Shown here piece by piece: positions 31,577 through 63,793 of a stretch of 64,000 nucleotides of DNA; within the stretch, counting starts at the first letter, position 1, and the number at the start of each line of letters is the position of its first letter. Below the pieces are notes generated by a model. The model was not told where the DNA came from. It ran no database searches and worked only from the letters and a program-made list of their open reading frames with translations. The stretch lies in IMG/VR virus record IMGVR_UViG_3300045988_128829, positions 85,817-149,816 of that record. One strand, written 5' to 3'. The position numbers were made by a program, and so were the translations under genes. This DNA comes from a virus.

Positions 31577-32083
31577 ATGAAGATTTCAAATAGGGATGGG
31601 GTAAATCCCTCGCTTATAATCAATAAAGGCATATACATCCAACATGTAGATGGAGGATTATATACAAAAGAAAATTGGTCTAATAAAGGATATTCCAATG
31701 ATCTATGCAATGGAATAGCTCTTGTAGATAAAGTGTGTTTTGTTATAGCCACCGAATATATTGGCACATTTCGTTGGGGTAAGGATGGAGAAATAGACAA
31801 TATATTTGCACAAGATAGTTCTCATATGGGAACTATTAAAAAGGATTATTGGGGGCGTGAAAATCAGAATGCGTATCTTGAATATATTTCTATTCCTTCT
31901 ACGGTAGACAACCCTTTTCTTTTTCCAGAAAAGGACATATCCGTACATGGGCTGCCGGCTAAAATAAGATCTATGTGTCCAAGATCTTCTACATTCAAAT
32001 CCCTTACATCTCCTACTTGTATAGTATTAGGGAAATTTAATTGCGTTTGTTTAATAGCAAACTTATCTATTTCTGATGCATAA
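31577..32083 (+). CDS. hypothetical protein (168 aa)
   Basis: Last ORF of the + block before the convergent junction. Confidence 0.5.
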   Translation: MKISNRDGVNPSLIINKGIYIQHVDGGLYTKENWSNKGYSNDLCNGIALVDKVCFVIATEYIGTFRWGKDGEIDNIFAQDSSHMGTIKKDYWGRENQNAYLEYISIPSTVDNPFLFPEKDISVHGLPAKIRSMCPRSSTFKSLTSPTCIVLGKFNCVCLIANLSISDA

Positions 32084-32168
32084 TATACTTCAGGTGTGAT
32101 CTCTATTTTTTTTTAACGCTATTTGACCACATGACATTCCGTCAAATAAACTTAACACTCTCATGGCA

Positions 32169-32477
32169 TTATACACATTTTTCAATTTTAATTAATTTTG
32201 ATGATAGATACATATTCCATTTTCCTCTGCCTCTGTCACCTTTTTCGTTTTGTTTTTGGATTGTCAAGTATAGATCTCCGTCTTCACATACTTCAACTTT
32301 TTTCAAGAAGCCTATCATTTCATCTCCTGTTTCGTGTAAAATACGGATCTTATCTCCTTCTTTTAACCCATAATTGGAATCAAAATATTCTTTTTTGATT
32401 CTATCAATATTGTCTTTATGATTTTTTATAGCATAAAGCTCGTTTCTTAATAAATAATTTAGTTGTTCTATTGTCAT
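32169..32477 (-). CDS. hypothetical protein (102 aa)
   Basis: First ORF of the - strand block. Confidence 0.5.
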   Translation of the reverse strand: MTIEQLNYLLRNELYAIKNHKDNIDRIKKEYFDSNYGLKEGDKIRILHETGDEMIGFLKKVEVCEDGDLYLTIQKQNEKGDRGRGKWNMYLSSKLIKIEKCV

Positions 32478-33217
32478 TTCTTTTCCTCCTTATTTAATGG
32501 TATTAACCCTTTTCCGTGCTTGTCATACCACAGCATAGCTATACAATTCCATGCACATTGTGCAAGATGAAAACATCCTGTATCGGAATCCACTCTTTCC
32601 CCTTTCATGTATTCCATTAGGTGTCGAAACATCGCAGCACGGTACCGTTCAATGCCATTGTCAAGATTCTGCCAAGTATTAGGACCGTACTTTTTGGCTC
32701 CGGCATGATAGACTTTTACAATGTCCTCAATTTCTTCCATCGGAAGCAAATCCCATCGTAGTTTATCGTCAATGATGTCATTCTTCACCGATTCCCCTTC
32801 TTTTTTATTATTGTCTTTTTTTGAACTAACAGGTTCTAACAAATCCAAGGGTATGCTAAACTGTTTCCCTTTGTAGTATATGACAGCCATAACATCTACA
32901 TTGTAGACCTCTTTTGCCAATTCGACCATAGCTCCCCCAGGAACAATATCATCTTTAAAAGAATAATCTTTTTTAGCAAAAAGAAATTCTCCTTCTTTGA
33001 AAAGGACATCATCATTCTTTAGTATATAATCAACTGGTATATCAATCTCCATACGACCTTCATACGACAGCGTGGCTTCCTTATCTCCTTTTTTGATATC
33101 TTTTTCACACACAACCTTAAGCCCTTTTTTGGCTACTAACGTTTTATAAGCATAAACATCTTTGTTAATAACCACATTTGTCCCCTTTAGGATAATAATA
33201 TTGTCCATTTTTTTCAT
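32474..33217 (-). CDS. putative nucleotide pyrophosphohydrolase-like protein (MazG / dATP-dGTP diphosphohydrolase-like C-terminal region)
   Basis: C-terminal motif W.LLP.EE...V...GA.KYG.N.W...R....FRH resembles the phage dNTP pyrophosphohydrolase family. Tentative. Confidence 0.4.
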   Translation of the reverse strand: MKKMDNIIILKGTNVVINKDVYAYKTLVAKKGLKVVCEKDIKKGDKEATLSYEGRMEIDIPVDYILKNDDVLFKEGEFLFAKKDYSFKDDIVPGGAMVELAKEVYNVDVMAVIYYKGKQFSIPLDLLEPVSSKKDNNKKEGESVKNDIIDDKLRWDLLPMEEIEDIVKVYHAGAKKYGPNTWQNLDNGIERYRAAMFRHLMEYMKGERVDSDTGCFHLAQCAWNCIAMLWYDKHGKGLIPLNKEEKK

Positions 33218-36384: not shown

Positions 36385-36523
36385 ATATCCTCCAGCTTCT
36401 CCTGAAGCTCAAACGCTTTCTTGAAATTCCCGCATCTTACAGCAACGTCTCTCATGTATTCTACGTTTATAACTTCCGGATCTTGCCGGTATTTCGTTCT
36501 TAACTTTTGAACATCCTCGTATT

Positions 36524-37543
36524 TCATCGTTTTATCTTTTTAGACGGATCCCAATCTGAAGAGAAAGGGCATTCGTTTTTGTTATGTAATCCAAAGTCAC
36601 AATAATAACACAGCGCCGACGGGCAGGGTAGCTTGTTTTGCGAAACAGGCTGGCTTAGGGTGGCGCGCCGCTTGCTATACCTGGCTTCTTCTGCTCCCTG
36701 GATGTACGCTTGAAATGTTTTTACACTATTATCTTCAAAATCATACATTTTAGACAAAGTGTCATTTAGCATTTCTATAGATTTTGTTTTACGCTCTTCA
36801 TCTATCTTAACCTTTTGGTACTGCCTGGTTCTGGTAAAGAAATAGATGTTCATATCTGGCAGAACTCCACCATATTTTCTATAGATGTAAAATGAATATA
36901 TAGGATGCTGTAAATTCGTTTCCAACTTCTTAGAATCAAAAATCTTATTCCCTGATTTCCAATCTATGACATAATGGTGAACTACGTTCTTGCTCTTTAT
37001 AGCCAGATGAAGGTCTACCGATCCTACTATGTACACATGAGTATGAATTACTCCATTTATATCAACAGGCTTAGGAAGACGGTACGGCAGCACAAAATCT
37101 TCTTCGACTCCAACTATAGCGCCGTGTCTGATAAGTTTCTCACAGGGATTAAGATCACTATCAGCTATCATAAACCTATTCCCGTCTTTTTTAAACAGAT
37201 CCACAATCCAAGCAAGAAGCTCCCCAGATTGTTTCATGGCTATCATCATATTTTCCGGTGATAGCCAAGGTATGTCTTCTTGGTAAGCATAGTAACTTAT
37301 TGCTTCTCCAAGGTCTTTGCCAGAAGGCTGCCTTCCGTTCTTGAAGAAGTATTCCAGTGTCTTATGAATAACCGTACCATAAGACGTAGCTTCTTGTTTT
37401 TCCGTAGACCTTTTGCCCTCTATGTAAGTCTTATACCATTTCATTGGACAGGTAAGAAACGTATCTATCTGGGAATAAGATATGGCAAGACGTTTCACAC
37501 CATTAAACTCCTTATATAGCAAATGCGTTTCCGGGACCATCAT
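36524..37543 (-). CDS. PD-(D/E)XK nuclease, Cas4/RecB-like, with C-terminal Cys cluster
   Basis: VDLH...VIDWKSG motif (the D..ExK-type core) plus C-terminal CPSALCYYCDF...C, typical of Fe-S Cas4-like exonucleases. Confidence 0.7.
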   Translation of the reverse strand: MMVPETHLLYKEFNGVKRLAISYSQIDTFLTCPMKWYKTYIEGKRSTEKQEATSYGTVIHKTLEYFFKNGRQPSGKDLGEAISYYAYQEDIPWLSPENMMIAMKQSGELLAWIVDLFKKDGNRFMIADSDLNPCEKLIRHGAIVGVEEDFVLPYRLPKPVDINGVIHTHVYIVGSVDLHLAIKSKNVVHHYVIDWKSGNKIFDSKKLETNLQHPIYSFYIYRKYGGVLPDMNIYFFTRTRQYQKVKIDEERKTKSIEMLNDTLSKMYDFEDNSVKTFQAYIQGAEEARYSKRRATLSQPVSQNKLPCPSALCYYCDFGLHNKNECPFSSDWDPSKKIKR

Positions 37544-37899
37544 AAGTCATTGTCTTTAAATCCTTCCGGGTAATATACGACATACTTCTTACCGTCTTCT
37601 GGTGTCATGGCAAACTGCATGTAGTTATTACGATTACGATGCTTGCCATCTAATCCTCGCTTCCAATACAGGATGCCGTCTATATCCACATAAGACCGTC
37701 CGCGTTCGGCTCTAACTACGTCCGTGTGTAGCAGATACCCGTCGGAAGACACAATCCATACTTTATCCCCTTTGTTTAAATAAGATATTCTTTTTCTTAC
37801 AACAACCTTTTTCTTATTATCCAATACAAATTCCTCATCAGTCATACTCTTCATCCTCCTCTTCTTCTGTTTCAAAATCAATTCCATAACACTGATCAT
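37540..37899 (-). CDS. hypothetical protein (119 aa)
   Basis: ORF. Confidence 0.5.
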   Translation of the reverse strand: MISVMELILKQKKRRMKSMTDEEFVLDNKKKVVVRKRISYLNKGDKVWIVSSDGYLLHTDVVRAERGRSYVDIDGILYWKRGLDGKHRNRNNYMQFAMTPEDGKKYVVYYPEGFKDNDL

Positions 37900-38062
37900 A
37901 ATGCTTGGTCAGTTCTTCTGGTTCTAAATCTTGTCCAAAATCCATGTTAAAAATATCGTAATTAGTAAAGCACTAAAAATCACTATTCCTGCTGGCATGA
38001 AATCTATAAATGCTGCTTTTGCTTCTTCAATTAGGCCCAAGTGTAACCTTGGGCCATTGTAT

Positions 38063-39763
38063 TTATTTTTTGTCATCTCCTTTTAATTTCTTTAAAGTAT
38101 CTGCAATCGGAAGCTGATCGATGACTCCCAATGCCGGAGCGACGGTCTTGACAACATTGTTAAGGAAATTACCGGTACTGTTCTGACCGCCGTCAAATAC
38201 CGTGATATTTCCGAGGTTAATGTGCTCAAATGCTTTAACCTGTTCTCCAGCAATTTCTTTCCACTGATTAACCATCTTGTACTGGATGGCGATCTGGGGA
38301 TTGGATTCTGCTGCTTCCACCATAGCCTTAAATCCGTCGGCTTCTGCCATTAACGACTTTTTCTTACCTTCGGCTTCTGCCTCCAGCTTCATCTGAATAG
38401 CTTTTGCCTCTGCCTCAGCTTTTGCCAAATGTGCTGCTGCCTCAGCCTCAGCCCGGCGTTTGATCTTCTCGGCCTCGGCATCAGCTTGTAAGATAGCCTC
38501 TTCCTTCTGGGTTTCAGCCGGCACAATCTTTTCAGCCTTAAGCGCAGCCTGAACTTTCTTAGCCTTAGCTTCTTCCACTTCTTTATCAGCAAGCTCTTTT
38601 GCCGTTTTTACAGCCGCTTCCGATTTAACTTTTTCTTCTCCGGCCTTCTTTTCTGATTGAGCTTTGATAATCTGTAGTTCTGATACTGACACAGCAACCT
38701 CCTTCTGGGCATTGTTGTATCCTATAGACGCATTTTTCTCAGCCTCAGCCTTCTTAATCTGAGCTTCAGAGTCTTGTATTGCTATAGCTGCTTCCTTGTC
38801 AGCTTCAGCCTTATTCTTTCCGACTTCTTCCATCCTTTCAGCCTCGGCTTTATTTACTTCAAGTTCTGCCTTAGATCTTACAATCGCCGATTCCTTGTCG
38901 GTTAAAGTTTTTGCGATAACCGCAGCCCTGTCTCTATCTGCTTGAGCTACGCCGATCTGTTTCTCTTTATCGGTTAAAGCCAAGGCTATTTCTTTTTCTT
39001 TCTTCGTTTCAGCTACTATCGTTTCCTTTTCTTTTTCAGTACAAGCAATTTGAATCTCTTGTTCTTTTTTGGTATTAGCCACAGCCGTTTCTTTCTCCTT
39101 CTGCTGTACAGCAATCTTAATAGCACCCAGCTTCTCCTGCTCTTCGATATTAGCTTGTGCTTCGTTCAGAGCCCTACTTTCAGCCTCCTTACCAAGGTTC
39201 ATAATATAACCTGCTTCGTCTCTGATGTCACTGATGTTGATGTTCAGGAGGTAAAGACCTAACTTGTTAAGCTCGTTATCAATGTTCTTTCTTGCCTTAT
39301 CCAAAAACTCATCCCTGTCAGAATTAAGTTTTTCGATTGTCATTTCAGCAATAATCAAACGCATCTGACCGTAAACGATGTCCGTAATAAGATTTTCAGT
39401 AGATTCGGTATCCATCCCCAAAAGTCTTTCTGCCGCATTTTGCATGATTTCGGGATTTGTACTGATAGCTACTGTAATGGTCGTAGGTACATCTACTCTA
39501 ATATTCTGAGATGACAAAGCACCGGTAAGCTTGCAATCTATTTGCATAGGCTCCATTGACAAAACATCATAGCTTTGAATAATAGGCAAGACGAATGCCG
39601 CTCCACCATGATATAATTTCGCCGACTTCTTTTCCCCACCTGTCTTACCGTAAACGACCAAGACCTGATTAGGCTTACATCTACGATACCTTGATAAGAC
39701 TCCGATGATTGTCAAAATAATCACTACAGCTAAGATAGCTGACACGTACATGATTGTTGTCAT
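38063..39763 (-). CDS. SPFH/band-7 flotillin-like membrane protein (566 aa)
   Basis: N-terminal TM helix, SPFH-like domain, very long E/A/K-rich coiled coil (EAEA repeats), flotillin/YqiK-like architecture. Confidence 0.85.
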   Translation of the reverse strand: MTTIMYVSAILAVVIILTIIGVLSRYRRCKPNQVLVVYGKTGGEKKSAKLYHGGAAFVLPIIQSYDVLSMEPMQIDCKLTGALSSQNIRVDVPTTITVAISTNPEIMQNAAERLLGMDTESTENLITDIVYGQMRLIIAEMTIEKLNSDRDEFLDKARKNIDNELNKLGLYLLNINISDIRDEAGYIMNLGKEAESRALNEAQANIEEQEKLGAIKIAVQQKEKETAVANTKKEQEIQIACTEKEKETIVAETKKEKEIALALTDKEKQIGVAQADRDRAAVIAKTLTDKESAIVRSKAELEVNKAEAERMEEVGKNKAEADKEAAIAIQDSEAQIKKAEAEKNASIGYNNAQKEVAVSVSELQIIKAQSEKKAGEEKVKSEAAVKTAKELADKEVEEAKAKKVQAALKAEKIVPAETQKEEAILQADAEAEKIKRRAEAEAAAHLAKAEAEAKAIQMKLEAEAEGKKKSLMAEADGFKAMVEAAESNPQIAIQYKMVNQWKEIAGEQVKAFEHINLGNITVFDGGQNSTGNFLNNVVKTVAPALGVIDQLPIADTLKKLKGDDKK

Positions 39764-39794
39764 AACTTTTAAAATTTAATTGTTGATAAAAAAA

Positions 39795-40289
39795 TTAGAT
39801 ACTTAATTCTCCTTCTTCATATTTTATATTCGCCTTGTCGCCGTTTTTGTAGGTTTTTCCAGACAAGCATCTTACTCTCATTTGCTCTTGTCTTCCATTT
39901 TTCGAAATATTTACCATATAATGATTCTTCCCTGATCTAAATACTATCTCCACTTCTCTTCCGTTTAAATCTTCCGGACATTCGTACACCATTTCTTGCT
40001 TTAACTTAAGAAGTAACTTATATACGTAAAACAAAACGATAAAGAAAAACGACCCTATCACAACCCCTACTAAATGGGAACCCGAAGAGTAGGTAGTCCA
40101 GCTATATCCAAGAATAAAATGTGTTATGCCCTTGAATGATATGATGTCCGACAAAGACATGCTTAAATCAGAAGCACTGTCAATGTCAATATCCGTATCC
40201 AGATCAGATCCTAATATCGACAACAAAAACTGTATAACAAAAGCAAATGATGCTATTAAAGCCATGCATAAAATTATATCACTTCCCAT
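39795..40289 (-). CDS. NfeD-like membrane protein (short form: TM helices + C-terminal beta-barrel)
   Basis: Two or three TM segments followed by a C-terminal OB-like segment (EVEIVFRSGKNHYMV). The canonical partner gene lies immediately upstream of the SPFH gene. Confidence 0.7.
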   Translation of the reverse strand: MGSDIILCMALIASFAFVIQFLLSILGSDLDTDIDIDSASDLSMSLSDIISFKGITHFILGYSWTTYSSGSHLVGVVIGSFFFIVLFYVYKLLLKLKQEMVYECPEDLNGREVEIVFRSGKNHYMVNISKNGRQEQMRVRCLSGKTYKNGDKANIKYEEGELSI

Positions 40290-40530
40290 ACCCTTCTGTT
40301 ATTATTTTGTAAACAAGATCAGTCATATCTTTGATGGTCTCCATATCATAATCAATAATAACAATATTGAATTTTTGTTCCACCATCACATCAAGCTCAA
40401 TTCGATCAACAGAATCTAATCCAAGTTCTTTAAACGTCACATCTTCTTCATGAACTATATCTATTTCCGAATTAAGAAACTGAGTAATAATTATATCCTC
40501 TATTATCTTTCTGATTCTTACTTTTTCCAT
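40279..40530 (-). CDS. acyl carrier protein-like (83 aa)
   Basis: Phosphopantetheine attachment motif LGLDSVDRIEL and an acidic helical 80-aa fold. Confidence 0.75.
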   Translation of the reverse strand: MEKVRIRKIIEDIIITQFLNSEIDIVHEEDVTFKELGLDSVDRIELDVMVEQKFNIVIIDYDMETIKDMTDLVYKIITEGYGK

Positions 40531-41231
40531 TGCTTTCTAATTTTGTTAAATAAATACGTTTTTATGTTTTTCAATCGCTCTTTGTCTGTTTCAGAACTTC
40601 CGGTAAACAAATAATCCGGATTGCCTTTAGCCGGCGGCGTAGGCAATTTAGATACGGCAAACAACCAATCCATTTCCTTATTCTTCTTAGACTCCAAATA
40701 AGGCCCGGTAGCGATCTTAAATTTTTCAGCTATTAAGTCAAAGAGCTTTGAATTTTTAAGGTTCATATGAACTGAAAAAGCCTGAGAAGGCGGTTTCCAT
40801 ATGAAGTTACATAAGCTCATTGTATAATCTCCTGACTCTGCTATATAAGATTCCGTTACCTGAAGTATGACCTCTTTCTTAAATGAGGTGTTACCCATAA
40901 ACCAACACAATCTGGATTCCGCTTCTTTTCTGCTGACACCTATGTCTTTTGAATACGATTCGTACATTCCTATCATAATCTTCAACGTCTCCAGAACCTC
41001 GTCTGTCATCTCCGGTGTCTCTATATAATTCACAAAAGACGTTCCTTTGTTGGTCAATCTCATCACGCCTGATTTTAATTTCTCAACCAGGCCAAGCTCT
41101 ATATACCTCCCAGCATCTTCCTCCGGCATGGCTTCGATCATAACCGAATCCTTCTGTCTTATGGCAAGAAGATTAGCAAGATCATTAGGAGTCATGTCTG
41201 ATGCTGCAAGTTGTCTGAAATTGATGTACAT
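40518..41231 (-). CDS. hypothetical protein (237 aa) adjacent to the ACP
   Basis: ORF overlapping the ACP gene by 13 nt. A weak SRKEAESRL motif is reminiscent of PPTase motif 3, but unconvincing. Confidence 0.55.
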   Translation of the reverse strand: MYINFRQLAASDMTPNDLANLLAIRQKDSVMIEAMPEEDAGRYIELGLVEKLKSGVMRLTNKGTSFVNYIETPEMTDEVLETLKIMIGMYESYSKDIGVSRKEAESRLCWFMGNTSFKKEVILQVTESYIAESGDYTMSLCNFIWKPPSQAFSVHMNLKNSKLFDLIAEKFKIATGPYLESKKNKEMDWLFAVSKLPTPPAKGNPDYLFTGSSETDKERLKNIKTYLFNKIRKQWKK

Positions 41232-41233
41232 AC

Positions 41234-41431
41234 CTAATCAGCTTTAATGAAAATAACATTCTTGTTATCTTGTCTATCAATATGTTCACATGGACCAATA
41301 ATCATGTCTGTACATGAACAATAATTGTATTTTTTAAATATACACCTATCGCATGTATCACCTTCCACACATTTTAATCTTACAAGTCCGGCAGCAAATA
41401 CTTCTCCTACTTTAAATTCCTTCTTTTCCAT
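41234..41431 (-). CDS. small Cys-rich protein (65 aa, 7 Cys)
   Basis: ORF, possible zinc ribbon. Confidence 0.45.
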   Translation of the reverse strand: MEKKEFKVGEVFAAGLVRLKCVEGDTCDRCIFKKYNYCSCTDMIIGPCEHIDRQDNKNVIFIKAD

Positions 41432-41446
41432 ATTCCCTCCTTGTTT

Positions 41447-42049
41447 TTAACTGTTGTACCCTTCTTTAATAATCGAATTTCTACCGGTAGATACCGACTG
41501 TCGAAGATCGTCATGTACAGAATCTACCGTAGAATACTTGTTTCTGGTTGTAAAAATCACTTCCAGCATCTCCTTGTAATCACCTAAAGCTACTTCGTAT
41601 CTCGGATCTACTTTGGCTTTTCTTTCAGCCTCGGCATTACTTTTAGCCAGTTCTCGATCAAGAAGATCTTCTTTGATTCGGTCAGCAATCATATCAAGTT
41701 CTTTTTTAATAACTTCTCCTGCTGCCCGAAGTTGACCTTCTACGTCACCAAGCTGGTCTTGGACGGTTCCTATTTCTTTCTTTAGGCGATCGTATTCGTT
41801 AATCATACCCATATCACCTGCATAGCCGGAAAAGTCCTTGATTATTCTGGTTCCTTCTTTAAGGAGCTCAATAACTCGTCTTTTACGTTCTCTGCTTATT
41901 AAAGACGGAAGACGATAATTCATATCCGCCACCGCCTTATCATGTATGGAGTTGATTAAAAACATCTCTCTTTCATCTCCTGCAAACTCAGTAAGAACCA
42001 AAAGGAACTTACTTATCAGGTATTCGTTTTCTTCTACTGTTAGTCTCAT
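41447..42049 (-). CDS. coiled-coil hypothetical protein (200 aa)
   Basis: ORF. Confidence 0.5.
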   Translation of the reverse strand: MRLTVEENEYLISKFLLVLTEFAGDEREMFLINSIHDKAVADMNYRLPSLISRERKRRVIELLKEGTRIIKDFSGYAGDMGMINEYDRLKKEIGTVQDQLGDVEGQLRAAGEVIKKELDMIADRIKEDLLDRELAKSNAEAERKAKVDPRYEVALGDYKEMLEVIFTTRNKYSTVDSVHDDLRQSVSTGRNSIIKEGYNS

Positions 42050-42062
42050 GGTTCTTATTTTT

Positions 42063-43196
42063 TTAATACAATGACTGTTCTTCTTTTGTCTCTTGTTCTT
42101 GTTCCTGATTGTCCGTAACGTCTTCCACAGTATAGAGCTTGGGAGGCGTCGGCGGCTGGTTGGGGTTCACGAACTTCGTCCCGCCCTCCCCGTACATCCA
42201 TCCATGTCCCGGCAGGATCTCTGGGTGGATTGTATTAGTAAGCTCTTCCATACTAACTTGCCTTACCTTCAGTATATGATGAAACACAAGTCCGGCTGTC
42301 CTGAATGATGTTTTGTTTTCAGTTTTAAACCTATCAAGAGTCTGATACCAATCTTTCCCAAATATCATATACTTATCCAGCCCGTACCTACGAGGATTGT
42401 GCAAACCTATCATTAACGTACATAACTGACCCAGCGTATCAGATTGGTAAAAATCAGAAAGACGCGGAGGCTGCTCTTGTGGGCTTTTTATCCTTCCTTC
42501 TATCTCTCTGTTGAATTGGGATATGATGAGGAAAAATATGTTTTTATATACTAATTTAGCTTCGTTCATAACCGCCACCAAATCATCTATAGCCGACTTA
42601 AGATCTAACCCCATTCTTTTTATCAAAGCAATATGATCGACTTTAAATATTATAAGACGTTTGTCTTTGTGTTTGGTAGCTATATGATACACAGCCGCCT
42701 CAAACTCTTTTACCGTACACGGAGCATCGATGTATATTATATTATTCCTGATTTCACCTTGAAGGATTTCAAACATCCTCATCTCTTCTACTGTATTAGA
42801 ATCTTGCCTTCTTAATATTTCAGGAGCTCGCTTTTTCATATCTTGGCTCATTCTACGAAGAAGAAGATCTTGAGGATTCATTTCGAACTCGCAATTAACA
42901 AGAAAATAATCTTCTGCTTGCGGGTTGATCATCGGATTCATCACATTTTCCAATATCTTTTGGGTCACATACGATTTACCTACAGATGGCCGTGCTCCTA
43001 TGGCAATAGCGTGCTGAGGAAAAATACCTCCAAGTAAAGCTTCGTCAATATAATCGTATCCGGTTTTAGCGGGGATAAGCTCTCCCCGCCTGTATTTCAA
43101 TATATTCTCATACGCCTCTTCCATAACCTGTTTAGAGGTCTTGAATATCCTTCTTATATCTATCCTATTTGCTATCTCCTCTTGCATTTTTGTCAC
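42063..43196 (-). CDS. DnaB-like replicative helicase (RecA-fold C-terminal domain)
   Basis: Walker A GARPSVGKS, Walker B-like region, and ISQFNRE resembling the DnaB SQLSR motif. Confidence 0.75.
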   Translation of the reverse strand: MTKMQEEIANRIDIRRIFKTSKQVMEEAYENILKYRRGELIPAKTGYDYIDEALLGGIFPQHAIAIGARPSVGKSYVTQKILENVMNPMINPQAEDYFLVNCEFEMNPQDLLLRRMSQDMKKRAPEILRRQDSNTVEEMRMFEILQGEIRNNIIYIDAPCTVKEFEAAVYHIATKHKDKRLIIFKVDHIALIKRMGLDLKSAIDDLVAVMNEAKLVYKNIFFLIISQFNREIEGRIKSPQEQPPRLSDFYQSDTLGQLCTLMIGLHNPRRYGLDKYMIFGKDWYQTLDRFKTENKTSFRTAGLVFHHILKVRQVSMEELTNTIHPEILPGHGWMYGEGGTKFVNPNQPPTPPKLYTVEDVTDNQEQEQETKEEQSLY

Positions 43197-43443
43197 CTTT
43201 CGTATCCGATTTGGATCCCCTATTAGCTTTTACTGATTTATACCTAAGACCGTTCTTGGTATGAGAACAATCCTTGCCTTTCCTCCAGCCCTTTCCCTTC
43301 TTCTTGTCCGTTTCGTAGTTTTTACGACCAAGCTCTCGGCGTTTGGCTTTCTGTTCCGGTCTGGCATTTATCTCCTTGTCTTTTTTAGCCTTTTTCTTCC
43401 TGGCTTCGGGATGAGTCCTGTAGTACTCTGTCGATCTACCCAT
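43165..43443 (-). CDS. highly basic Lys/Arg-rich small protein (92 aa), possible DNA-binding or histone-like
   Basis: ORF with about 40% K+R. Overlaps the dnaB-like start by 32 nt. Confidence 0.45.
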   Translation of the reverse strand: MGRSTEYYRTHPEARKKKAKKDKEINARPEQKAKRRELGRKNYETDKKKGKGWRKGKDCSHTKNGLRYKSVKANRGSKSDTKGDKNARGDSK

Positions 43444-50602: not shown

Positions 50603-51058
50603 TTAGTTTTGAATTAATGTGAAAAGAGCAATTATAGCCGCAACTGATATAATAGATAAAATAACGTTTGCCAATGCATGCTTTAAGAGGCGCCTTTCGA
50701 GATTTGCGATATGCTTTCTTAGTCCTTCGCAATGTTTTTTTGTAGATCTGGATTCTTTGAGTTCTTTGTTGTATTTTACCATATTTTTGTCGCACCATTT
50801 CATTATATCAGCACTTGCTTTGTTAAGCATATCTCTGATTTTTTTATCATCATAGAATGGTATTTCAACACCAACACAAGTATATGGACTGTATAATAAT
50901 CCGTATGTATCAAAGCACACTTTCAATGTGACAACTTCAGGCTTAGCCATTTCTTCGGCTTGTTTCTTTATCTGCTCATCTGTTGCTTCGGCTTTAGCTT
51001 TAAGCTCATTGTAGTCTTCTATATTCAGCAAAGCCATGTTTTCAAATTCTGTATTCAT
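50603..51058 (-). CDS. hypothetical protein with C-terminal TM anchor (151 aa)
   Basis: ORF. Confidence 0.5.
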   Translation of the reverse strand: MNTEFENMALLNIEDYNELKAKAEATDEQIKKQAEEMAKPEVVTLKVCFDTYGLLYSPYTCVGVEIPFYDDKKIRDMLNKASADIMKWCDKNMVKYNKELKESRSTKKHCEGLRKHIANLERRLLKHALANVILSIISVAAIIALFTLIQN

Positions 51059-51256
51059 ATCTACTATTTCTTATTTAGAGTGAATGTTTGCCAAATGCTT
51101 TATCCCAACGCCTGTTTGCTATCTGTACACGTACTACCAACGCATCACGATATTTACGGGATTAGATGGTTCTTATGTGGCGGATGTTGGTAATCCTAAC
51201 AACGCATTCGTACTGATTTTTGCAAACTGTTCATTCAATTATTATTTAATTATGTA

Positions 51257-52141
51257 TTATTTATAATCCTGATATGCACAGCTTTTAAATGCTGCTTTCA
51301 TATTGACCCACCGGGCAAAACGTCTTTGTTCGGCTGTAGGTGGTATGTTTGTGTCCAAGTCCCGGTATGCCATAGCAAAAGGGACGCATCCTAATCGATC
51401 AAGATATAAGGCTCTTCTTTCGGCATCTTCGATTTGCCCATCCTTTACAAGCATATAGAAAAACAACTTCCTGCCAGGGATCCCAGCTTCTTTCAAGTAA
51501 GCGATAGCTGTTTCCACTTCGTCTGTTATGGCAGAGTGGTCATAAGCCATCCTTATAAACTTAATCCACCTTACACGTTTTAGCAGCTTAGCAATTGATT
51601 TATCGCGAGCTATAAGCCTGCAATCTATCCCTTGATTAAAGTCTACTTTTACTTTGAGCGATATGATCTTCTCTATCTGTTGTAGTCCCCAGTCGGATGC
51701 GATCACGTTGTTATCCATCAATATCGCCGATTTACGTCCGTCCAAAAATTCTGTGATGTCAGAATGTTTCCGGATCCCACCTTCTTTACGAGGAACGATA
51801 CAGAAAGAGCATTTGTTTACACATCCGCGAGTAAGAAAACCATACGCTTCCGGGAACATTGGATATAGCGAGTAATCCGGGCATATATGTTCAATGTCTT
51901 CCGGTAACCATTGATCGAACAACTTGTATCCAGATCCACCTCTTACTACTTCATCGGCTTGTATTACCCTTTCTTCATCCAACGTAAAACCAAAAACTTT
52001 GCTAAGATAAACCCGATCGTAATAATCGATACCGGTATACCATTCTACCTGATCTCCTTTCGCCTTATGATAGGCAGACAACTTCATCAGTGCCAGGTTA
52101 GGGTAATGATGTCCGTCAACATCAATCATTCCAATCTTCAT
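51257..52141 (-). CDS. radical SAM domain protein (294 aa)
   Basis: CxxxCxxC cluster (GCVNKCSFC). The N-terminal Rossmann/B12-binding-like region starts MKIGMIDVDG. The ATG at 52141 is preferred over the upstream start of the ORF track. Confidence 0.65.
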   Translation of the reverse strand: MKIGMIDVDGHHYPNLALMKLSAYHKAKGDQVEWYTGIDYYDRVYLSKVFGFTLDEERVIQADEVVRGGSGYKLFDQWLPEDIEHICPDYSLYPMFPEAYGFLTRGCVNKCSFCIVPRKEGGIRKHSDITEFLDGRKSAILMDNNVIASDWGLQQIEKIISLKVKVDFNQGIDCRLIARDKSIAKLLKRVRWIKFIRMAYDHSAITDEVETAIAYLKEAGIPGRKLFFYMLVKDGQIEDAERRALYLDRLGCVPFAMAYRDLDTNIPPTAEQRRFARWVNMKAAFKSCAYQDYK

Positions 52142-52165
52142 GATCTCACATTTATTTAAGTTGTT

Positions 52166-52189
52166 GCTCCCGACATTTGAGACGGGAGC
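52166..52189 (-). other. perfect 7-bp hairpin (GCTCCCG/CGGGAGC) in the leader of the radical SAM gene
   Basis: Inverted repeat with a 10-nt loop between the stop at 52199 and the start at 52141. Confidence 0.35.
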
Positions 52190-52198
52190 AAACAATAA

Positions 52199-52597
52199 CT
52201 ACTTTTTCATTAATTCAATGCGGGTTCTTAAAGTCAATAAATAGTCGTGCATTTCGATTTTCTGCTGCTCCATCAGTGCTACTTGCATTTCACCGGCTAT
52301 TTCAACTGCTTCTTTTCGTCCAAGGAACAATACCAATTTATTATACTTTTCCATCAATTCATTGTATTCAATACACATACGATCAAGAGGAGTTTCGGCC
52401 ACTTTGTATGCTCTTTCAAACACATCTTTTGGTGACCAGCTTTCATATCCATCTTCGTAACGAACGTGATAACCTTGCTCGGTTTCTTCATGGTTATCAA
52501 TACTCTTGCCATAGGGGTTTCTACCCGTTTTTTGGACGAAGTCACCTAATGTCATCGCTTCTGCCTCAATAAGTTTTGTCCCAATATACTTTTTCAT
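52199..52597 (-). CDS. hypothetical protein (132 aa)
   Basis: ORF. Confidence 0.5.
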   Translation of the reverse strand: MKKYIGTKLIEAEAMTLGDFVQKTGRNPYGKSIDNHEETEQGYHVRYEDGYESWSPKDVFERAYKVAETPLDRMCIEYNELMEKYNKLVLFLGRKEAVEIAGEMQVALMEQQKIEMHDYLLTLRTRIELMKK

Positions 52598-52653
52598 ATT
52601 ATATTACGGTTTGCCTATACACCATAAGGTTCTAATTACAATTTATTTAAATA

Positions 52654-52869
52654 TTATTTTAAATCATCAATTTCATAACTCCAACTCATCGCATCTTTTT
52701 CTATGATGTTATCAGCAAGCCATCCAGCTGCAATGGAATCTTCAGGAACTTCCCACGCTCCGCTATCGTAGTTTTCTATTAGATCATCATATACTTCTTC
52801 TGGAACTTCTATATCCTCTAAGCCTACTGTGTAAGTAACCGTTACGGTCAAATTCTTTATAGTTTTCAT
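52654..52869 (-). CDS. small acidic protein (71 aa)
   Basis: ORF. Confidence 0.4.
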   Translation of the reverse strand: MKTIKNLTVTVTYTVGLEDIEVPEEVYDDLIENYDSGAWEVPEDSIAAGWLADNIIEKDAMSWSYEIDDLK

Positions 52870-52882
52870 GACTCAATTATAT

Positions 52883-53110
52883 TTAGTTTGTTTTTTGGGC
52901 ACTCCAAACATTATAATCAGATTCAGGCAATTCAATAATATTCAAAATTACAATCTCAGCATTTTCACATTCAAGTGTAGATGCTATCTGCTCTATTGCT
53001 ATCTGTCTGTTCAGGTAGCATCCATCCGTCACAAAAGTGGTTTGCCCAGAACCATGTACTTTGCCATTGCCAAAATTGTATGACACTATGAAATATCTTT
53101 TTCCGCTCAT
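52883..53110 (-). CDS. hypothetical protein (75 aa)
   Basis: ORF. Confidence 0.45.
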   Translation of the reverse strand: MSGKRYFIVSYNFGNGKVHGSGQTTFVTDGCYLNRQIAIEQIASTLECENAEIVILNIIELPESDYNVWSAQKTN

Positions 53111-53126
53111 ATTTTTTTTAGTTGTG

Positions 53127-53291
53127 TTAGTTCTTATTGTCTTTTACTACAATAGCACATGTAACCATCATTTCGACAGAGACGACAAGAAGTCCAAGCC
53201 AAAAATTGATTTTAAAAGCCACTTCAGCCAAGACGGCAAGAAACAATATGTAACCAGCCAGACCTATTAAGCCAAAAATTTTTTTATTCAT
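53127..53291 (-). CDS. small two-TM membrane protein (54 aa; not in the ORF track because it is under 60 aa)
   Basis: The ATG at 53291 lies 2 nt after the HAD stop. MNKKIFGLIGLAGYILFLAVLAEVAFKINFWLGLLVVSVEMMVTCAIVVKDNKN. Its orientation fits the operon better than the + ORF 53037..53270. Confidence 0.4.
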   Translation of the reverse strand: MNKKIFGLIGLAGYILFLAVLAEVAFKINFWLGLLVVSVEMMVTCAIVVKDNKN

Positions 53292-53293
53292 AC

Positions 53294-53668
53294 CTATACT
53301 TTATTCAGATTCTCCTTCCATTTCTTTTCCTCATTCGTTATATATTCATAAATCTCCGGCCAGGTAGGCAGACCGCCCACCTGCTTGTCATCGATGTAGC
53401 AATGGGCATAAATCTTGCGGGGATCATCGCCATAGCGAGCGAGGTTCTGCGGTTCATGGGCATTGATGCGGTCAAAGGGGATACCTTGCTCCAAGAGCCA
53501 GTTCAGAGCATCCTCCAGCCGCTCACCCCGACGACAGGTCCATAATATAATGTAATGGCCATCGTCCTTCAATTTGTTCATCATCTCTACCGCGTATGGT
53601 TTGGGATTCCCGATTTCAGGATAGGGCCCCATTGAGAGGGTTCCGTCAAAATCAACTGCAATAATCAT
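53294..53668 (-). CDS. small HAD-superfamily phosphatase (124 aa)
   Basis: N-terminal DxDGT motif (VDFDGTL). GC-rich codons, except the last ~20 codons, which are AT-rich (composition junction). Confidence 0.65.
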   Translation of the reverse strand: MIIAVDFDGTLSMGPYPEIGNPKPYAVEMMNKLKDDGHYIILWTCRRGERLEDALNWLLEQGIPFDRINAHEPQNLARYGDDPRKIYAHCYIDDKQVGGLPTWPEIYEYITNEEKKWKENLNKV

Positions 53669-54231
53669 ACCCCGTCCTCCATTTTATTGGCTGCCTTGAT
53701 TTCATACTTGTCGTAATAGACCCGTTCACGGTCGGTGAAGCAGCGGTCTGAGATCAGGTCGAGAAGCTTCATGAAGTTCAGCTCATTGCCGACGCGCAGG
53801 TCGGCTCCCTCGAAGAATACCCTTACGAACTCACGATAAGCCTTGATGGCACGGATCAGCTCTCCCTTGCGGTGTTCCCATTCGGGGACGGGCTTGAAGC
53901 CCCGGTCGCTGAAGTAGGCAAAAAACATCTCGATATGATAGATCGCCAGGTCGGCCTCGTTGAGCGACAAGTGCAGGATCTTACCGAAAAAAGCCCGTTC
54001 GGCTCGATCCATATTGCGGTTGTCGTCGTGGAACTGTTGGTCGATCCGGGAGTCTTCAAGCTCCTTTTTCAAATGTGCTATGCGCTGCATGGCCTGCTGA
54101 TGGCGGGCGTAGTTCCGGTTTCGGAGACAGGAGGCGGCATCATTCATCGCCTCACGCAGCTCCTGCTCGATCAGAAAGACCGGGCGGCATTTGTGCCGAT
54201 TGGCGGCACAGGATTGTTTCTTCTTTTTCAT
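53665..54231 (-). CDS. hypothetical protein (188 aa), Mu-like early region
   Basis: GC-rich ORF coupled to its neighbours. Confidence 0.55.
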   Translation of the reverse strand: MKKKKQSCAANRHKCRPVFLIEQELREAMNDAASCLRNRNYARHQQAMQRIAHLKKELEDSRIDQQFHDDNRNMDRAERAFFGKILHLSLNEADLAIYHIEMFFAYFSDRGFKPVPEWEHRKGELIRAIKAYREFVRVFFEGADLRVGNELNFMKLLDLISDRCFTDRERVYYDKYEIKAANKMEDGV

Positions 54232-54232
54232 C

Positions 54233-54775
54233 TTAAAATAATTTAGGTTCTTTTGATTCGTTGATATACTCCAAAAGAAGGTAGTCCAACTGTTGTACCT
54301 CCCAGTTGATGCCGGGGCGGTTCCGATAGAGGTTACGGATCAGCCGTCGGCATTCTTCGGGCATGAGGCCCGAGTCGAGCTTCGCCATCGGGAGGTTGAT
54401 ACGGTCGAGTGTGATGGTCGAGGCTTGCAAGATTTTCGCATTGCCTTTCCATATACCTTTCAAATAGATTTGCTTCACTGCCCCGATGGCATTCCTGACC
54501 GGATGATGCAGGCGGATCGTCGTGAAACAGCGGCAGTTCAACTTGCCATTGAAGTTCTCTTCAAATTCCAATCGTTCGTCCATGACTTTGTAATATTTTC
54601 CTGTTTGTTGTTTGCATTTGAAACAATAGACCATCCACTTGTTCGAAGTCCTCACCACCCGGCAGACGGTGTACCTGAAACCACAGGGGCAGACGTATAT
54701 CCAGCGACCGGGGGTGAGGGTAGTGGATTTTACCCGTTTTACAGTCGGTTGAACGACGGTTCGAGTTTCTTCCAT
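54233..54775 (-). CDS. Cys-rich/zinc-binding hypothetical protein (180 aa)
   Basis: CPCGFRY...CFKC and CRC motifs. Confidence 0.55.
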   Translation of the reverse strand: MEETRTVVQPTVKRVKSTTLTPGRWIYVCPCGFRYTVCRVVRTSNKWMVYCFKCKQQTGKYYKVMDERLEFEENFNGKLNCRCFTTIRLHHPVRNAIGAVKQIYLKGIWKGNAKILQASTITLDRINLPMAKLDSGLMPEECRRLIRNLYRNRPGINWEVQQLDYLLLEYINESKEPKLF

Positions 54776-55383
54776 ACGCCCATCTTGTCTTTCTCGAAGA
54801 AATAGAAGTTGGTCGCCGTCCCTTCGACCAGGTGTGACTCCTTGAAAAGGTTCATGATCGCGGTATATTCGGGATCATCGAACTTATCTTCCAACTCGTA
54901 GAGTTTCGAGATCGACTTATAGTCGAGATCACCATACTTGTTGCGCTCCAAAAGCGTCATCGCCAACTGGTACATCGGGTCGTCGCTTCCGGCATCCTTA
55001 CCCTCGATCCACTGCTGCAGGAACTCGATCAGGCGCGAAGCGGCGATATCGGCACGCTCATCAAAACGTTTCACTTTGTTTGACCTCACTTCGATACGGA
55101 AGCACCCCTCCTGGACGGTGAACGACATCTGTCCCTCGCGGCGCAACTGGCCGTACTCGGCGAGCACTTGGCGGAACGCTCCGATTTCATCCACGCAAAA
55201 AGCGTGCAGCCCTTTCACTTCGTCGCACACGGAACGCACTTTGTTTTCAACTTTCTGTACTAATTCAGCACGGATGCCTTCATAGGCGGCACGTTTGTCC
55301 AACGCCTGGCGGTGTTCTTCTTCTCTCTTTTTTGCCAATAATGCTTCTAAATCTTTACTTGTCAGTTTGCTTAAATCTTCCAT
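54739..55383 (-). CDS. coiled-coil hypothetical protein (214 aa), Mu-like early gene
   Basis: GC-rich ORF in an operon with the A/B genes. Confidence 0.55.
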   Translation of the reverse strand: MEDLSKLTSKDLEALLAKKREEEHRQALDKRAAYEGIRAELVQKVENKVRSVCDEVKGLHAFCVDEIGAFRQVLAEYGQLRREGQMSFTVQEGCFRIEVRSNKVKRFDERADIAASRLIEFLQQWIEGKDAGSDDPMYQLAMTLLERNKYGDLDYKSISKLYELEDKFDDPEYTAIMNLFKESHLVEGTATNFYFFEKDKMGVWKKLEPSFNRL

Positions 55384-55401
55384 GATTTTTTGATTTATGA
55401 A

Positions 55402-55653
55402 TTATGAATTTGATTTATGTTTGTATTTCATGTATTCGCTACGGAGAAAGGTAAGCGACTGTTCAAGTTGCTCGATCTCCTCTTCCCATTCGCGAAGCAG
55501 GCGGCGCTGTGCCTCCATGTCGGGTGTGGCGCGTGTGAGCAGCATATCGGCAAGAAATGCTGCGTCGTCCTTCAGTTTCTCCTGCCGGCGACGGATCTGC
55601 CGTCCACGCCGCTCGATCTCTTCCAGTTTGTCCTTTATTGGAATGTAACCCAT
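55402..55653 (-). CDS. small coiled-coil protein (83 aa)
   Basis: ORF. Confidence 0.45.
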   Translation of the reverse strand: MGYIPIKDKLEEIERRGRQIRRRQEKLKDDAAFLADMLLTRATPDMEAQRRLLREWEEEIEQLEQSLTFLRSEYMKYKHKSNS

Positions 55654-55659
55654 AGCTCC

Positions 55660-56154
55660 TTAGTTTTTGCCGACAGGGTGGTCCAGTTCAGGGTTACCCT
55701 CTATGCCTACGCTGTTGCGCTTACGATAGAGGTTGTAGATGGCTGTCAGTTTGTCGTCCGGTATTGCGTTGAAGTTGCCGCAATTGGCCGCCCGACAGGC
55801 GATGCCTTTCACATACATCAACTTATGCCGGTCGTCACGAAACTTGTAGCCCAATTTGTCGACCCACTGGCAGATGGCGGCGATCACCCTTTTGGCAGAC
55901 CGGTCGCGCCGCTCCTCGTAGGCCATCAGCCTCTTTTCTCCCTTGGGCTTCATCGCATCGATCATCCGACTGTACTCCGACGGATAGTTCTCATACATCT
56001 CGTTGAGCGAGGTGGTACGCCCACCGCTATGTTCATGTACGATACCCTCCTTGATCACTTCCTTGTAACAAGGATCGTAACCCGGCGTTTCCTTCAACAA
56101 AGTCCAGAAGAGGGCGTGGGAATGTTTTTTCGTTTGTCTCTTGGTTGTTGCCAT
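55660..56154 (-). CDS. hypothetical protein (164 aa)
   Basis: Internal ATG at 56154 (MATTKRQTKK...) of track ORF 55660..56493. The longer N-terminal extension would overlap the next gene by 320 nt in another frame. Confidence 0.55.
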   Translation of the reverse strand: MATTKRQTKKHSHALFWTLLKETPGYDPCYKEVIKEGIVHEHSGGRTTSLNEMYENYPSEYSRMIDAMKPKGEKRLMAYEERRDRSAKRVIAAICQWVDKLGYKFRDDRHKLMYVKGIACRAANCGNFNAIPDDKLTAIYNLYRKRNSVGIEGNPELDHPVGKN

Positions 56155-56173
56155 ACTGTATTGTTTCTGAATG

Positions 56174-56812
56174 TTATTTAACTTGATCAAAATCCTGTCC
56201 GTAGTAAAGAACTGCCTTCTCCTCCCAGATGATGAAGGGGTGCGACTTCTGTCCGTGGTCAAGGTAACGGCTGGCAGCCACGGCACGGAAACCCTCCACG
56301 TAAATCTTGCACGAACAGTCGTAACGGATGCTGTCGGCCACACCACCCTTGGGGTTCTTGCCGTCGGCGTGACTGATGAAGATGAAGAGCTTACGGGGGA
56401 AGCGGGAACGCAGGTCGCGATAGGTATCGTAGTCGATGCGGGCATATTGCAAGGAGTCGATGATAACGATATCCCAACTCTTCGGCTTTGCAAGTTTTTC
56501 TACCATCTCATCGAAGTTCATGTCCAGGAGCACCACCCGTCCGTTCACTTCCATCATTCCGGCATCCTGAAATGAACGTTGCAGTGAGAGGCTGTCGCCC
56601 TCCTCCAACGAGAGGTAGGCGACACGGCCGAACTCGGCGAGATACTTCGCCAGACGACAGGTGAAGGTGGTTTTCCCTGATCCCGACTGTCCCCAGATGA
56701 TCCATGCGCCTTGCGGTTCGGGACGGCCCAGCAGATGATAGAACGACCCGCTGAAATCCATTGCCTTTTTCCTTTCCTGCAGGAATTGTTTTATGCCTAA
56801 GATCTTTCCCAT
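56174..56812 (-). CDS. P-loop NTPase, RecA-like/AAA_24-type (212 aa)
   Basis: Walker A GQSGSGKTT and Walker B IVIIDSL. Confidence 0.6.
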   Translation of the reverse strand: MGKILGIKQFLQERKKAMDFSGSFYHLLGRPEPQGAWIIWGQSGSGKTTFTCRLAKYLAEFGRVAYLSLEEGDSLSLQRSFQDAGMMEVNGRVVLLDMNFDEMVEKLAKPKSWDIVIIDSLQYARIDYDTYRDLRSRFPRKLFIFISHADGKNPKGGVADSIRYDCSCKIYVEGFRAVAASRYLDHGQKSHPFIIWEEKAVLYYGQDFDQVK

Positions 56813-56814
56813 CG

Positions 56815-57747
56815 CTACATCTGTCCGAATTGGTTAGCGATCTGTTCACGTTTCACGAGTCGCATCAGCCGGCGCAGGTCTTCGCAGAAAAACAGGTTCT
56901 TCTCCTTGGTCTCGCCCCGTTTGTTGGTTACTTTCACGTAGCGCTTGATCTTGTCAACCTCGTTCCAGATACGGTCGGCGGTGGCATCGTCCAATCCGTT
57001 GGCGGTGCAGATTTCCTTTACATCCTGCTCGGTGGCTCCGGGTAATTCGATGTAGCTGCGTCCCAAGCGGCTGTCGATTTCGTCATAGCCTTTGGTGTTG
57101 TTACGCACACCACGGGCGATCTCTTTATGCAGGTTCTCCGTACCGGCAAGCACACAGCCCAAACGGTGCTCGGTACGGTTGTAGAGGGGGATCAGCTTGC
57201 GGAAGGCGGCCGGCTTCAGCTTGTCGGCTTCATCAATGATCAGTACCGGGTGATCACCGGCCATACCGTTGAAATATTCCGCTATCATCTTCAGCAAGGT
57301 AGGAATATCGGTATAGCCTCGCTTGGGTACACCGCAGGTGCGTTCGGCCAGCTCAACGAGGAACTGCCTGGAGTTCCACTCCTCTGCCTGGATGAAGACA
57401 ACCGAGCCGGTGAGATCCTGGTTGAAGAGGTGTTCCAAGGTTTGTGTCTTGCCACTTCCCGCCTTATTCGAGATTGCCATCCACAAAGCCTGCTGCTTGC
57501 AGGAGCGGTAAACAAACTCGATCTTGCGGTAGTTCTGGATGGTGGTCACCACCTGCCAACCGTCTTCCTGATAGCCTAAAGTGGAGGCGATGCGTTTTTC
57601 CAGCTCGGCGCTGTTCGCGCCGTACTTCCCGTTCATCCATTGGCTAAGGGCGGTACCTGATATACCACATTTCTCTGCAACCTTACTCTGTGATCCAAGC
57701 CGGGTGATCCAGTCACCTACGTGTTTCAATAATCCGTTTCTGTTCAT
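56815..57747 (-). CDS. MuB-like transposition AAA+ ATPase with N-terminal HTH (310 aa)
   Basis: N-terminal HTH (SKVAEKCGISGTALSQW), Walker A NKAGSGKTQ and Walker B VLIIDEADKL. Size and architecture match MuB/TniB. Lies directly downstream of the DDE transposase. Confidence 0.75.
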   Translation of the reverse strand: MNRNGLLKHVGDWITRLGSQSKVAEKCGISGTALSQWMNGKYGANSAELEKRIASTLGYQEDGWQVVTTIQNYRKIEFVYRSCKQQALWMAISNKAGSGKTQTLEHLFNQDLTGSVVFIQAEEWNSRQFLVELAERTCGVPKRGYTDIPTLLKMIAEYFNGMAGDHPVLIIDEADKLKPAAFRKLIPLYNRTEHRLGCVLAGTENLHKEIARGVRNNTKGYDEIDSRLGRSYIELPGATEQDVKEICTANGLDDATADRIWNEVDKIKRYVKVTNKRGETKEKNLFFCEDLRRLMRLVKREQIANQFGQM

Positions 57748-57771
57748 ATCGTGTCTGTTTTTTTATATCGT

Positions 57772-59847: not shown

Positions 59848-59876
59848 ATCGTTCCGTTTTTAGAAATTTATCATTG

Positions 59877-59958
59877 TTCCCGGAAGCGGATTCGAACCGC
59901 TGACCATATCGCCTGAATTACCAGTTCCGATTGTTCTGCCTGACTGAACTATCCGGGA
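59877..59958 (-). tRNA. tRNA-like element, possibly tRNA-Thr(GGU) with atypical spacer lengths (82 nt)
   Basis: Perfect 7-bp acceptor stem (TCCCGGA/TCCGGGA), D arm GTTC-AGTCAGGCA-GAAC and T arm AGCGG-TTCGAAT-CCGCT. Candidate anticodon loop CT-GGT-AA has U33 and A37, but there are 3 nt before the anticodon stem and an 11-nt variable region. Confidence 0.4.
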
Positions 59959-60019
59959 TACCACCCTCGTACCGCGGGCCGCGTACCGATGCTAAACCAA
60001 AACCAATCTTAATTGAGAC

Positions 60020-60256
60020 CTAAACCGATTGTTTATCCTTGTCGCTGCCACCAAGCAGCCGAACCATCCATTCTTCGAAACGGTCCAACTCGCATAAGCA
60101 AGCCGCTTCGTTACCGATCAGCATGTAGCTGAAGAAGAACCAGACCGAACAGAGCAGACTTCCCGCCAGTATGCTGCCATGTTCCATCGTTCCGATTCCG
60201 GCAAACAGGAACAGCCAACTCAATGCCCATCCGTAAAGTATCACCTTCGCCTTCAT
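60020..60256 (-). CDS. small membrane protein (78 aa)
   Basis: ORF with two TM helices. Confidence 0.45.
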   Translation of the reverse strand: MKAKVILYGWALSWLFLFAGIGTMEHGSILAGSLLCSVWFFFSYMLIGNEAACLCELDRFEEWMVRLLGGSDKDKQSV

Positions 60257-60268
60257 AATTCTCCATTG

Positions 60269-60643: not shown

Positions 60644-60760
60644 CTTTTTCTGTCGTTTTTAGAATTATCTGTCTGTCCCGGCTGCGGTCTCGCTCCGCTA
60701 TGTGCGAGTCATAAGCTCTCTTGGCCGGGTGTAAGGGTTAGCAGTCTTTATATGTCGCGA

Positions 60761-61435: not shown

Positions 61436-61453
61436 TCCTGTTTTAAATGGCTA

Positions 61454-63790: not shown

Positions 63791-63793
63791 TAG

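Follow-up and report, generated by a model that had tools for sequence, protein, structure and literature searches.

The 64,000-nucleotide stretch of DNA analysed here (hereafter the window; IMG/VR virus record IMGVR_UViG_3300045988_128829, positions 85,817 to 149,816) carries, in the replication module of an epsilon crAss-like phage, a two-gene operon (38063-40289) that was acquired from a Bacteroidales-type chromosome and that encodes a predicted NfeD-like membrane protein of 164 residues followed by a flotillin of 566 residues. Two genes that adjoin this operon on the same strand, one for a putative acyl carrier protein (ACP) of 83 residues and one for a 237-residue protein with a predicted winged helix, are older, separate components of the replication module. 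An earlier note on this DNA had read all four as one cassette lying between a Cas4-like nuclease and a DnaB-like helicase. Both the position and the four open reading frames (ORFs), all on the minus strand, are as that note described them; the single cassette resolves into three separable units, namely a core winged-helix gene, an ACP-like gene, and the host-derived NfeD-like/flotillin operon together with a small transmembrane (TM) ORF. We reach this division because bacterial flotillin operons have neither the ACP-like gene nor the 237-residue one, and because sister phages have these genes without the flotillin. The best overall explanation, to which we assign a probability of about 0.72, is that a host-derived scaffold operon sits in a cargo slot of the replication module and would act as a membrane scaffold during infection.

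The NfeD-like/flotillin pair and its bacterial counterparts

Over positions 36500-43200 the window is 97.4% identical to GenBank record OR575929, phage crAssE-Sib, a 151-kb epsilon crAss-like phage of the human gut (Babkin et al. 2024, PMC11054128), and the window derives from a Bacteroidales phage that is epsilon crAss-like (Epsilonunovirus-type). The corresponding proteins are labelled in OR575929 as "hypothetical protein" (237 residues), "acyl carrier protein" (83 residues), "transmembrane protein" (164 residues) and "flotillin family protein" (566 residues); they are known families, partly annotated already, in an uncommon phage-borne setting. The crAssE-Sib paper contains no discussion of the flotillin, the ACP or the membrane proteins (PMC11054128), and our literature search returned no paper connecting flotillin or ACP to crAss-like phages. 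The earlier description of these genes as unusual phage cargo is borne out by the rarity of the flotillin, to which only 11 of 50,697 GenBank phage records give any match.

The 566-residue protein comprises an N-terminal hydrophobic anchor, an SPFH/Band_7 domain, a coiled coil rich in Glu and Ala, and a C-terminal Flot domain. Profile hidden Markov models (HMMs) recognise both domains (Band_7, PF01145, residues 30-211, E = 7.6e-26, 91.7 bits against a cut-off of 23.6; Flot, PF15975, residues 450-559, E = 2.1e-9, 38 bits against a cut-off of 27), and matches in the PDB include human flotillin-2 (6.8e-23) and flotillin-1 (4.9e-19) from the 9bq2/9l3g complexes. The score against the NCBIfam FloT equivalog NF058507, 144.5 bits, does not reach its cut-off of 700. 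By its domain content the protein is a true flotillin of the SPFH2 group, but not a FloT equivalog, and it is not a generic coiled-coil protein devoid of an SPFH domain. What had been called an extreme EA-repeat coiled coil proved ordinary for flotillins: residues 200-470 contain 18.5% Glu and 21.4% Ala, against 15-17% and 22-23% in bacterial homologues, the DNA holds no tandem repeat, and a repeat expansion is accordingly rejected. Flotillin length varies among database relatives (P0099-P0218) from 408 to 659 residues, apparently through insertions and deletions in the coiled coil, and the short entries may partly be truncated gene calls.

In the AlphaFold2 model of the 164-residue protein, TM helices occupy residues 2-25, 52-69 and 72-101, an acidic DxDxDxD loop separates the first from the second, and the confidently modelled C-terminal beta domain is a soluble OB-fold barrel resembling solved NfeD domains. 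The three-helix layout recurs across a 77-member family and in E. coli YqiJ, and a profile search retrieved 411 family representatives of ~160-180 residues with matching layout and a conserved DxDxDxD loop. The gene lies directly upstream of, and co-oriented with, the SPFH gene in the window and in loci L082, L084 and L261. Partners of the NfeD2, YuaF and YqiJ types are known to share three hydrophobic stretches together with an all-beta domain that is soluble, at low sequence conservation; NfeD2-type partners, with ~21% identity to classical NfeD, are recognised through structure and operon context, and the NfeD2-type partner and SPFH2 operon moves laterally as a pair (PMC2636767). We regard the 164-residue protein as probably NfeD-like, on fold and synteny and not on HMM matches. 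Of the earlier assignment to short-form NfeD, the fold, the three TM helices and the synteny stood, and the match to an NfeD or YqiJ HMM did not materialise.

A scan of bacteria, limited to one genome per species, yielded 80 chromosomal loci from Bacteroides, Phocaeicola, Parabacteroides, Prevotella and their relatives. At 79 of them a homologue of the partner is followed within ~30-150 bp by the flotillin, the single exception being at a contig end, as befits the canonical cellular operon that the pairing had been taken for. Phage and Bacteroidales flotillins are 62-67% identical by tblastn over their full length and 66-71% in global alignment, and the partners 31-45% (31-41% at the 79 loci). 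The neighbours of the bacterial operon are housekeeping genes that differ between genera, and none of the 80 loci has a homologue of the ACP, of the 237-residue protein or of the 50-residue ORF that lies downstream of the phage flotillin. The Bacteroidales partner family (loci L096-L175, e.g. L098:4001-4534) numbers, when clustered at 50%, more than 400 representatives, and one metagenome-assembled genome, CAAFAI01, holds two paralogous partner-flotillin operons (L096, L117).

Among viral contigs, flotillin relatives are encoded on at least 164 entries of IMG/VR, and the NfeD-like/flotillin pair is intact in 80 of 80 sampled relatives. Scans of IMG/VR seeded with the window flotillin or with the 237-residue alignment returned near-identical relatives only; sister lineages surfaced only after re-seeding with distant members. 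The phage flotillins form one clade beside the Bacteroidales clades and therefore point to a single acquisition. At a G+C content of 0.43, against 0.49-0.54 for the bacterial genes, the phage flotillin has ameliorated toward the phage value. Between the window and L082, amino acid identity is 82% for the flotillin and 62% for the partner, the proportion of nonsynonymous differences (pN) is 0.11 and 0.23, respectively, and synonymous differences (pS) are saturated, figures that indicate purifying selection on both genes in the phage. Because of the single clade, the divergence, the G+C content and the low pN at saturated pS, we interpret the operon as an old capture from a host that selection has kept; the ~30% divergence from every sampled host copy in particular implies that the capture is old. 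That the pair might instead be a neutral passenger, recently captured host DNA without function for the phage, would suit its absence from sister epsilon-like lineages, and is highly improbable given an intact pair in every sampled relative and in a second lineage, the selection figures just cited, the amelioration and the age of the capture. For epsilon crAss-like phages, Bacteroides, Parabacteroides and Porphyromonas have been predicted as hosts (PMC11054128); the origin of the operon agrees with this prediction and so supports a Bacteroidales host.

The small ORF that follows the flotillin has a tblastn match in 80 of 80 closely related IMG/VR loci (81-100% identity; coverage of at least 90% in 53), and a 52-residue ORF occupies its position in L082. 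Bacterial loci have no counterpart downstream of the flotillin, and the ORF is possibly a phage-specific, third member of the phage flotillin module. Features of the locus are collected in Table 1.

Table 1. Predicted genes of the flotillin locus and the two genes that flank it in the window
Feature	Coordinates	Strand or position	Basis or remark
PD-(D/E)XK (Cas4-like) nuclease	36524-37543	flank	PDDEXK_1, 1.6e-20
50-aa ORF, C-terminal TM helix	37924-38076	-	shares 14 nt with the flotillin gene, stop codon included
Flotillin (SPFH2-type), 566 aa	38063-39763	-	Band_7 + Flot
NfeD-like (YuaF/YqiJ-type, short form) flotillin partner, predicted, 164 aa	39795-40289	-	fold + synteny
Putative divergent type-II-FAS-like ACP, 83 aa, Ser in LGLDSVD	40279-40530	-	PP-binding, phrog_5934
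Predicted replication-module protein, 237 aa, MarR-like winged helix + all-alpha C-terminal domain	40518-41231	-	predicted structure
DnaB-like helicase	42063-43196	flank	DnaB_C, 3.4e-16

The ACP-like and 237-residue proteins and the cargo slot

The 83-residue protein matches the PP-binding HMM (PF00550, 8.5e-6, 26.4 bits against a cut-off of 20.8) and the phage ACP family phrog_5934 (2e-8), and its best relatives in the PDB are fatty acid synthesis (FAS) and mitochondrial ACPs (~1e-5); all NCBIfam ACP models remain under their cut-offs for this protein (for example, 29.4 against 71). Its LGLDSVD segment aligns with LGADSLD of E. coli AcpP, the longer LGLDSVDRIEL site singled out by the earlier note is there with its Ser intact, and the net charge is -10. 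From these sequence features we judge it to be a divergent type-II-FAS-like ACP in which the carrier Ser is present. Within its own lineage all 229 hits (60 unique sequences) keep the Ser motif unchanged, in a protein that evolves fast: identity to L082 is 38%, and the ratio of nonsynonymous to synonymous substitution rates is 0.29 against 0.05 for the neighbouring genes. In sister lineages the Ser of the orthologues is replaced by Asp at five loci (LGFDDLD) and by Pro at one (MGMDPLD). These Ser-less forms, encoded beside the 237-residue gene in L087 (7675-7938), L257, L258, L259, L260 and L341 (5701-5976), stay conserved and acidic, with net charges of -12 to -15. The substitution suggests a carrier-independent role for the sister orthologues, and because of it a carrier function would not be universal in the phage family.

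No HMM matches the 237-residue protein. Its structure model (pLDDT 87) matches a MarR-type winged helix over the first ~85 residues only, and the C-terminal domain is all-alpha. The only significant match in a search of viral structures was a protein, itself uncharacterised, of the crAss relative Cellulophaga phage phi14:2. Family members reach down to 36% identity and are always found near DnaB and an SNF2/DEAD helicase. A phosphopantetheinyl transferase (PPTase) or acyltransferase fold, for which the earlier note had proposed that this protein be checked, is ruled out by the winged-helix fold and by the lack of any such HMM match; on the model and its constant neighbours we interpret the protein as a probable core DNA-binding component of the replication module.

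The four genes are tightly packed, with overlaps of 13 nt between the 237-residue and ACP genes and 11 nt between the ACP and 164-residue genes, and a gap of 31 nt before the flotillin. Of 80 closely related contigs from IMG/VR, 77-80 have the genes in intact form, and L082 (60-82% identical) and L261 share the order 237-ACP-NfeD-flotillin. This shared strand, the overlapping start and stop codons, the conserved order and the invariant Ser would all be expected of a four-gene functional cassette in which, for example, the ACP were loaded with an acyl group and an acylated product or lipid delivered to flotillin microdomains. The conservation that the earlier note wished to see checked does not extend to the sister lineages, where the order breaks up: six loci (L087, L257-L260 and L341) have the 237-residue and ACP genes without a flotillin, and in L086, L089 and L335-L340 the 237-residue gene stands without either. 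Bacterial flotillin operons, as seen above, lack both genes, the 237-residue protein has a winged helix and no enzyme fold, and the carrier Ser gives way to Asp or Pro in sister phages. We also found no PPTase (ACPS/Sfp), acyltransferase, ligase or ketosynthase in 96 phage ORFs scanned (10 + 44 + 42; small ORFs and structural genes not all covered), nor any PPTase or acyl-handling enzyme in the annotation of OR575929. The cassette is on this evidence very unlikely, and with it the acylated product that had been suggested.

In L087 and L257-L260 the 237-residue and ACP genes are followed, in place of the flotillin, by methylase and radical-SAM genes. The stretch from ACP to nuclease in L087 (7941-10946) and in L088 is occupied by genes for a DNA methylase and for two radical-SAM proteins, between which lies a homologue of the 119-residue gene of the window. 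The slot between the ACP-like gene and the PD-(D/E)XK nuclease is a variable cargo hot-spot of the replication module, and the ACP-like gene is translationally coupled to the winged-helix gene in some lineages.

Proposed role of the pair in infection

A scheme for the action of the host-derived operon can be drawn from its bacterial counterparts. The pair shares its strand with the replication genes, and the ORFs overlap or nearly abut; for these reasons, and because no terminator was found, we propose that it would be co-transcribed with them. The NfeD-like protein would be inserted in the inner membrane through its three TM helices, and its cytoplasmic OB domain would bind the flotillin and promote oligomerisation, as in the FloA-NfeD pair of S. 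aureus, where binding of the OB domain to flotillin favours the formation of membrane-attached oligomers that stabilise membrane proteins (PMC11222466). The phage SPFH assemblies may then supplement or replace the flotillin scaffold of the host, and the scaffold might, to the phage's advantage, preserve the working of membrane protein complexes and the organisation of the membrane in a cell that is infected or in the carrier state. The ACP, if modified at all, would rely on a host PPTase, and the 237-residue protein would be a DNA-binding replication or transcription factor.

Several results weigh against this interpretation. At E <= 0.1 neither PF01957 (NfeD) nor PF21001/PF07290 (YqiJ) matches the 164-residue protein or four bacterial homologues; PF01957 recognises one of the 77 family members (6e-5), the family profile matches YuaF weakly (E = 0.28), and hhalign of the family against the single sequence of E. 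coli YqiJ gave E = 0.02 at a probability of 2%. Bacteroidales orthologues of the flotillin are 84-92% identical among themselves, and the phage flotillin, at 66-71%, falls outside their crown group. A scan for promoters and terminators performed at chance level and found no terminator, Bacteroides promoters lying outside its models. Finally, the benefit that the phage would draw from the pair is something we infer.

The pair might alternatively act against competitors or host defences, either by superinfection exclusion through reorganisation of the inner membrane or by modulating an FtsH-type protease, in the manner of HflK/C, to steer the choice between carrier and lytic states. SPFH proteins do regulate FtsH and other membrane complexes (PMC2636767), the module is accessory and located in a cargo hot-spot, and Epsilonunoviruses are described as having repressor and antirepressor genes and possibly a temperate or carrier lifestyle (PMC11054128). 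No PADLOC defence model was matched, however, a protease or toxin partner is absent nearby, and both proteins resemble plain orthologues encoded by a host housekeeping operon, all of which leaves this alternative unlikely. A broader conjecture joins the genes in a common programme of host-membrane control: the domesticated flotillin/NfeD scaffold and the phage TM protein would build or reorganise inner-membrane microdomains, for example by stabilising phage membrane proteins or anchoring replication or assembly in a long carrier state, and the ACP would act on host lipid synthesis, as holo-ACP here and, in sister phages, as an apo-ACP mimic that lacks the Ser. We hold this to be a rather long shot. 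A membrane scaffold of host origin in the cargo slot remains our preferred explanation.

Neighbouring sequence, known counterparts and implications

Elsewhere in the window and its relatives several features lie apart from the operon. In some relatives the SNF2/DEAD helicase has an intein/homing-endonuclease insertion (Hom_end_hint, Intein_splicing, LAGLIDADG), and TnpB/IS605 OrfB elements are scattered through the replication module; coordinates of these insertions and elements are L088:13288-14711, L089:6142-8571, L082:13497-14288 and L088:2592-3812. Relative to 110.0-115.3 kb of OR575929, the window lacks ~4 kb at ~31886-33193, a segment that in crAssE-Sib covers several small genes as well as a gene annotated as cytosine-5 DNA methyltransferase. 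Colinearity with crAssE-Sib ends at ~50.6 kb, and positions 52,641-64000, with a G+C content of 0.51-0.55, are ~98% identical to Mu-like phage contigs of IMG/VR, the full-length ones being ~41-42 kb. Among the products of this part are an rve transposase of MuA-like type (57772-59847), a MuB-like AAA_22+HTH protein (56815-57747), a DUF3164 protein (54739-55383), a Bro-N protein and an S24 repressor. The Mu-like contigs run on beyond the join, which is therefore not a clean Mu end; by its looks, the stretch 50619-64000 stems from a chimeric assembly or from recombination. The intervening 50.6-52.6 kb matches neither crAssE-Sib nor the Mu-like contigs and holds a 294-residue ORF (51257-52141, minus strand) with a weak Radical_SAM match (3e-5, under the gathering score).

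Among described systems, the yuaF-floT/yuaG operon of B. subtilis, yqiJ-yqiK of E. coli and floA-nfeD of S. aureus all place the partner, as the phage does, upstream of the flotillin. Bacterial SPFH2/NfeD2 operons have in common with the phage pair a partner in which three TM helices precede an OB barrel on the cytoplasmic side, and the same order of domains in the flotillin; they differ in that the phage pair lies inside a replication module and is followed by a phage-specific 50-residue TM ORF, and in that the phage partner has diverged too far to be recognised by the HMMs for NfeD and YqiJ. Identity of the phage flotillin to E. coli YqiK is only 24%. The direct homologues are those of the Bacteroidales chromosomal operon, with equal spacing and lengths, from which the phage copies are set apart by forming a clade of their own, by lower G+C content and by polymorphic coiled-coil length. 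In Vibrio phage KIT04 (Demerecviridae, T5-like; LC487410.1, L357:2180-3850) a "flotillin family protein" shows 29% identity over the SPFH region and is preceded by the gene for a small membrane protein of 82 residues that consists of TM segments only and is without an OB domain. This 82-residue protein resembles the TM part of the NfeD/YqiJ partner. The KIT04 flotillin is an independent acquisition, by an unrelated phage with an unrelated host. The ACP-like protein has in common with type II FAS ACPs and PHROG 5934 the four-helix ACP signature, the acidity and a DS(L/V)D motif where helix II begins; unlike these it is very divergent, no cognate PPTase or acyl enzymes were found among the ORFs scanned, and its gene is coupled to a winged-helix gene.

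This work puts a name, the NfeD2-like flotillin partner, to a family of Bacteroidales proteins with more than 400 representatives that is missed by current HMM libraries; the assignment would follow from fold and operon context. A small puzzle of its own is posed by the ACP-like protein, whose carrier Ser has been lost in particular lineages. For the uncultured epsilon crAss-like phages the pair lends support to a Bacteroidales host. In an abundant lineage of gut phages, an entire flotillin operon of host type has become fixed and is under purifying selection. This suggests that membrane organisation is a host function which it pays crAss-like phages to encode, and it may bear on the poorly understood persistent, non-lytic infections that these phages establish in Bacteroidales.

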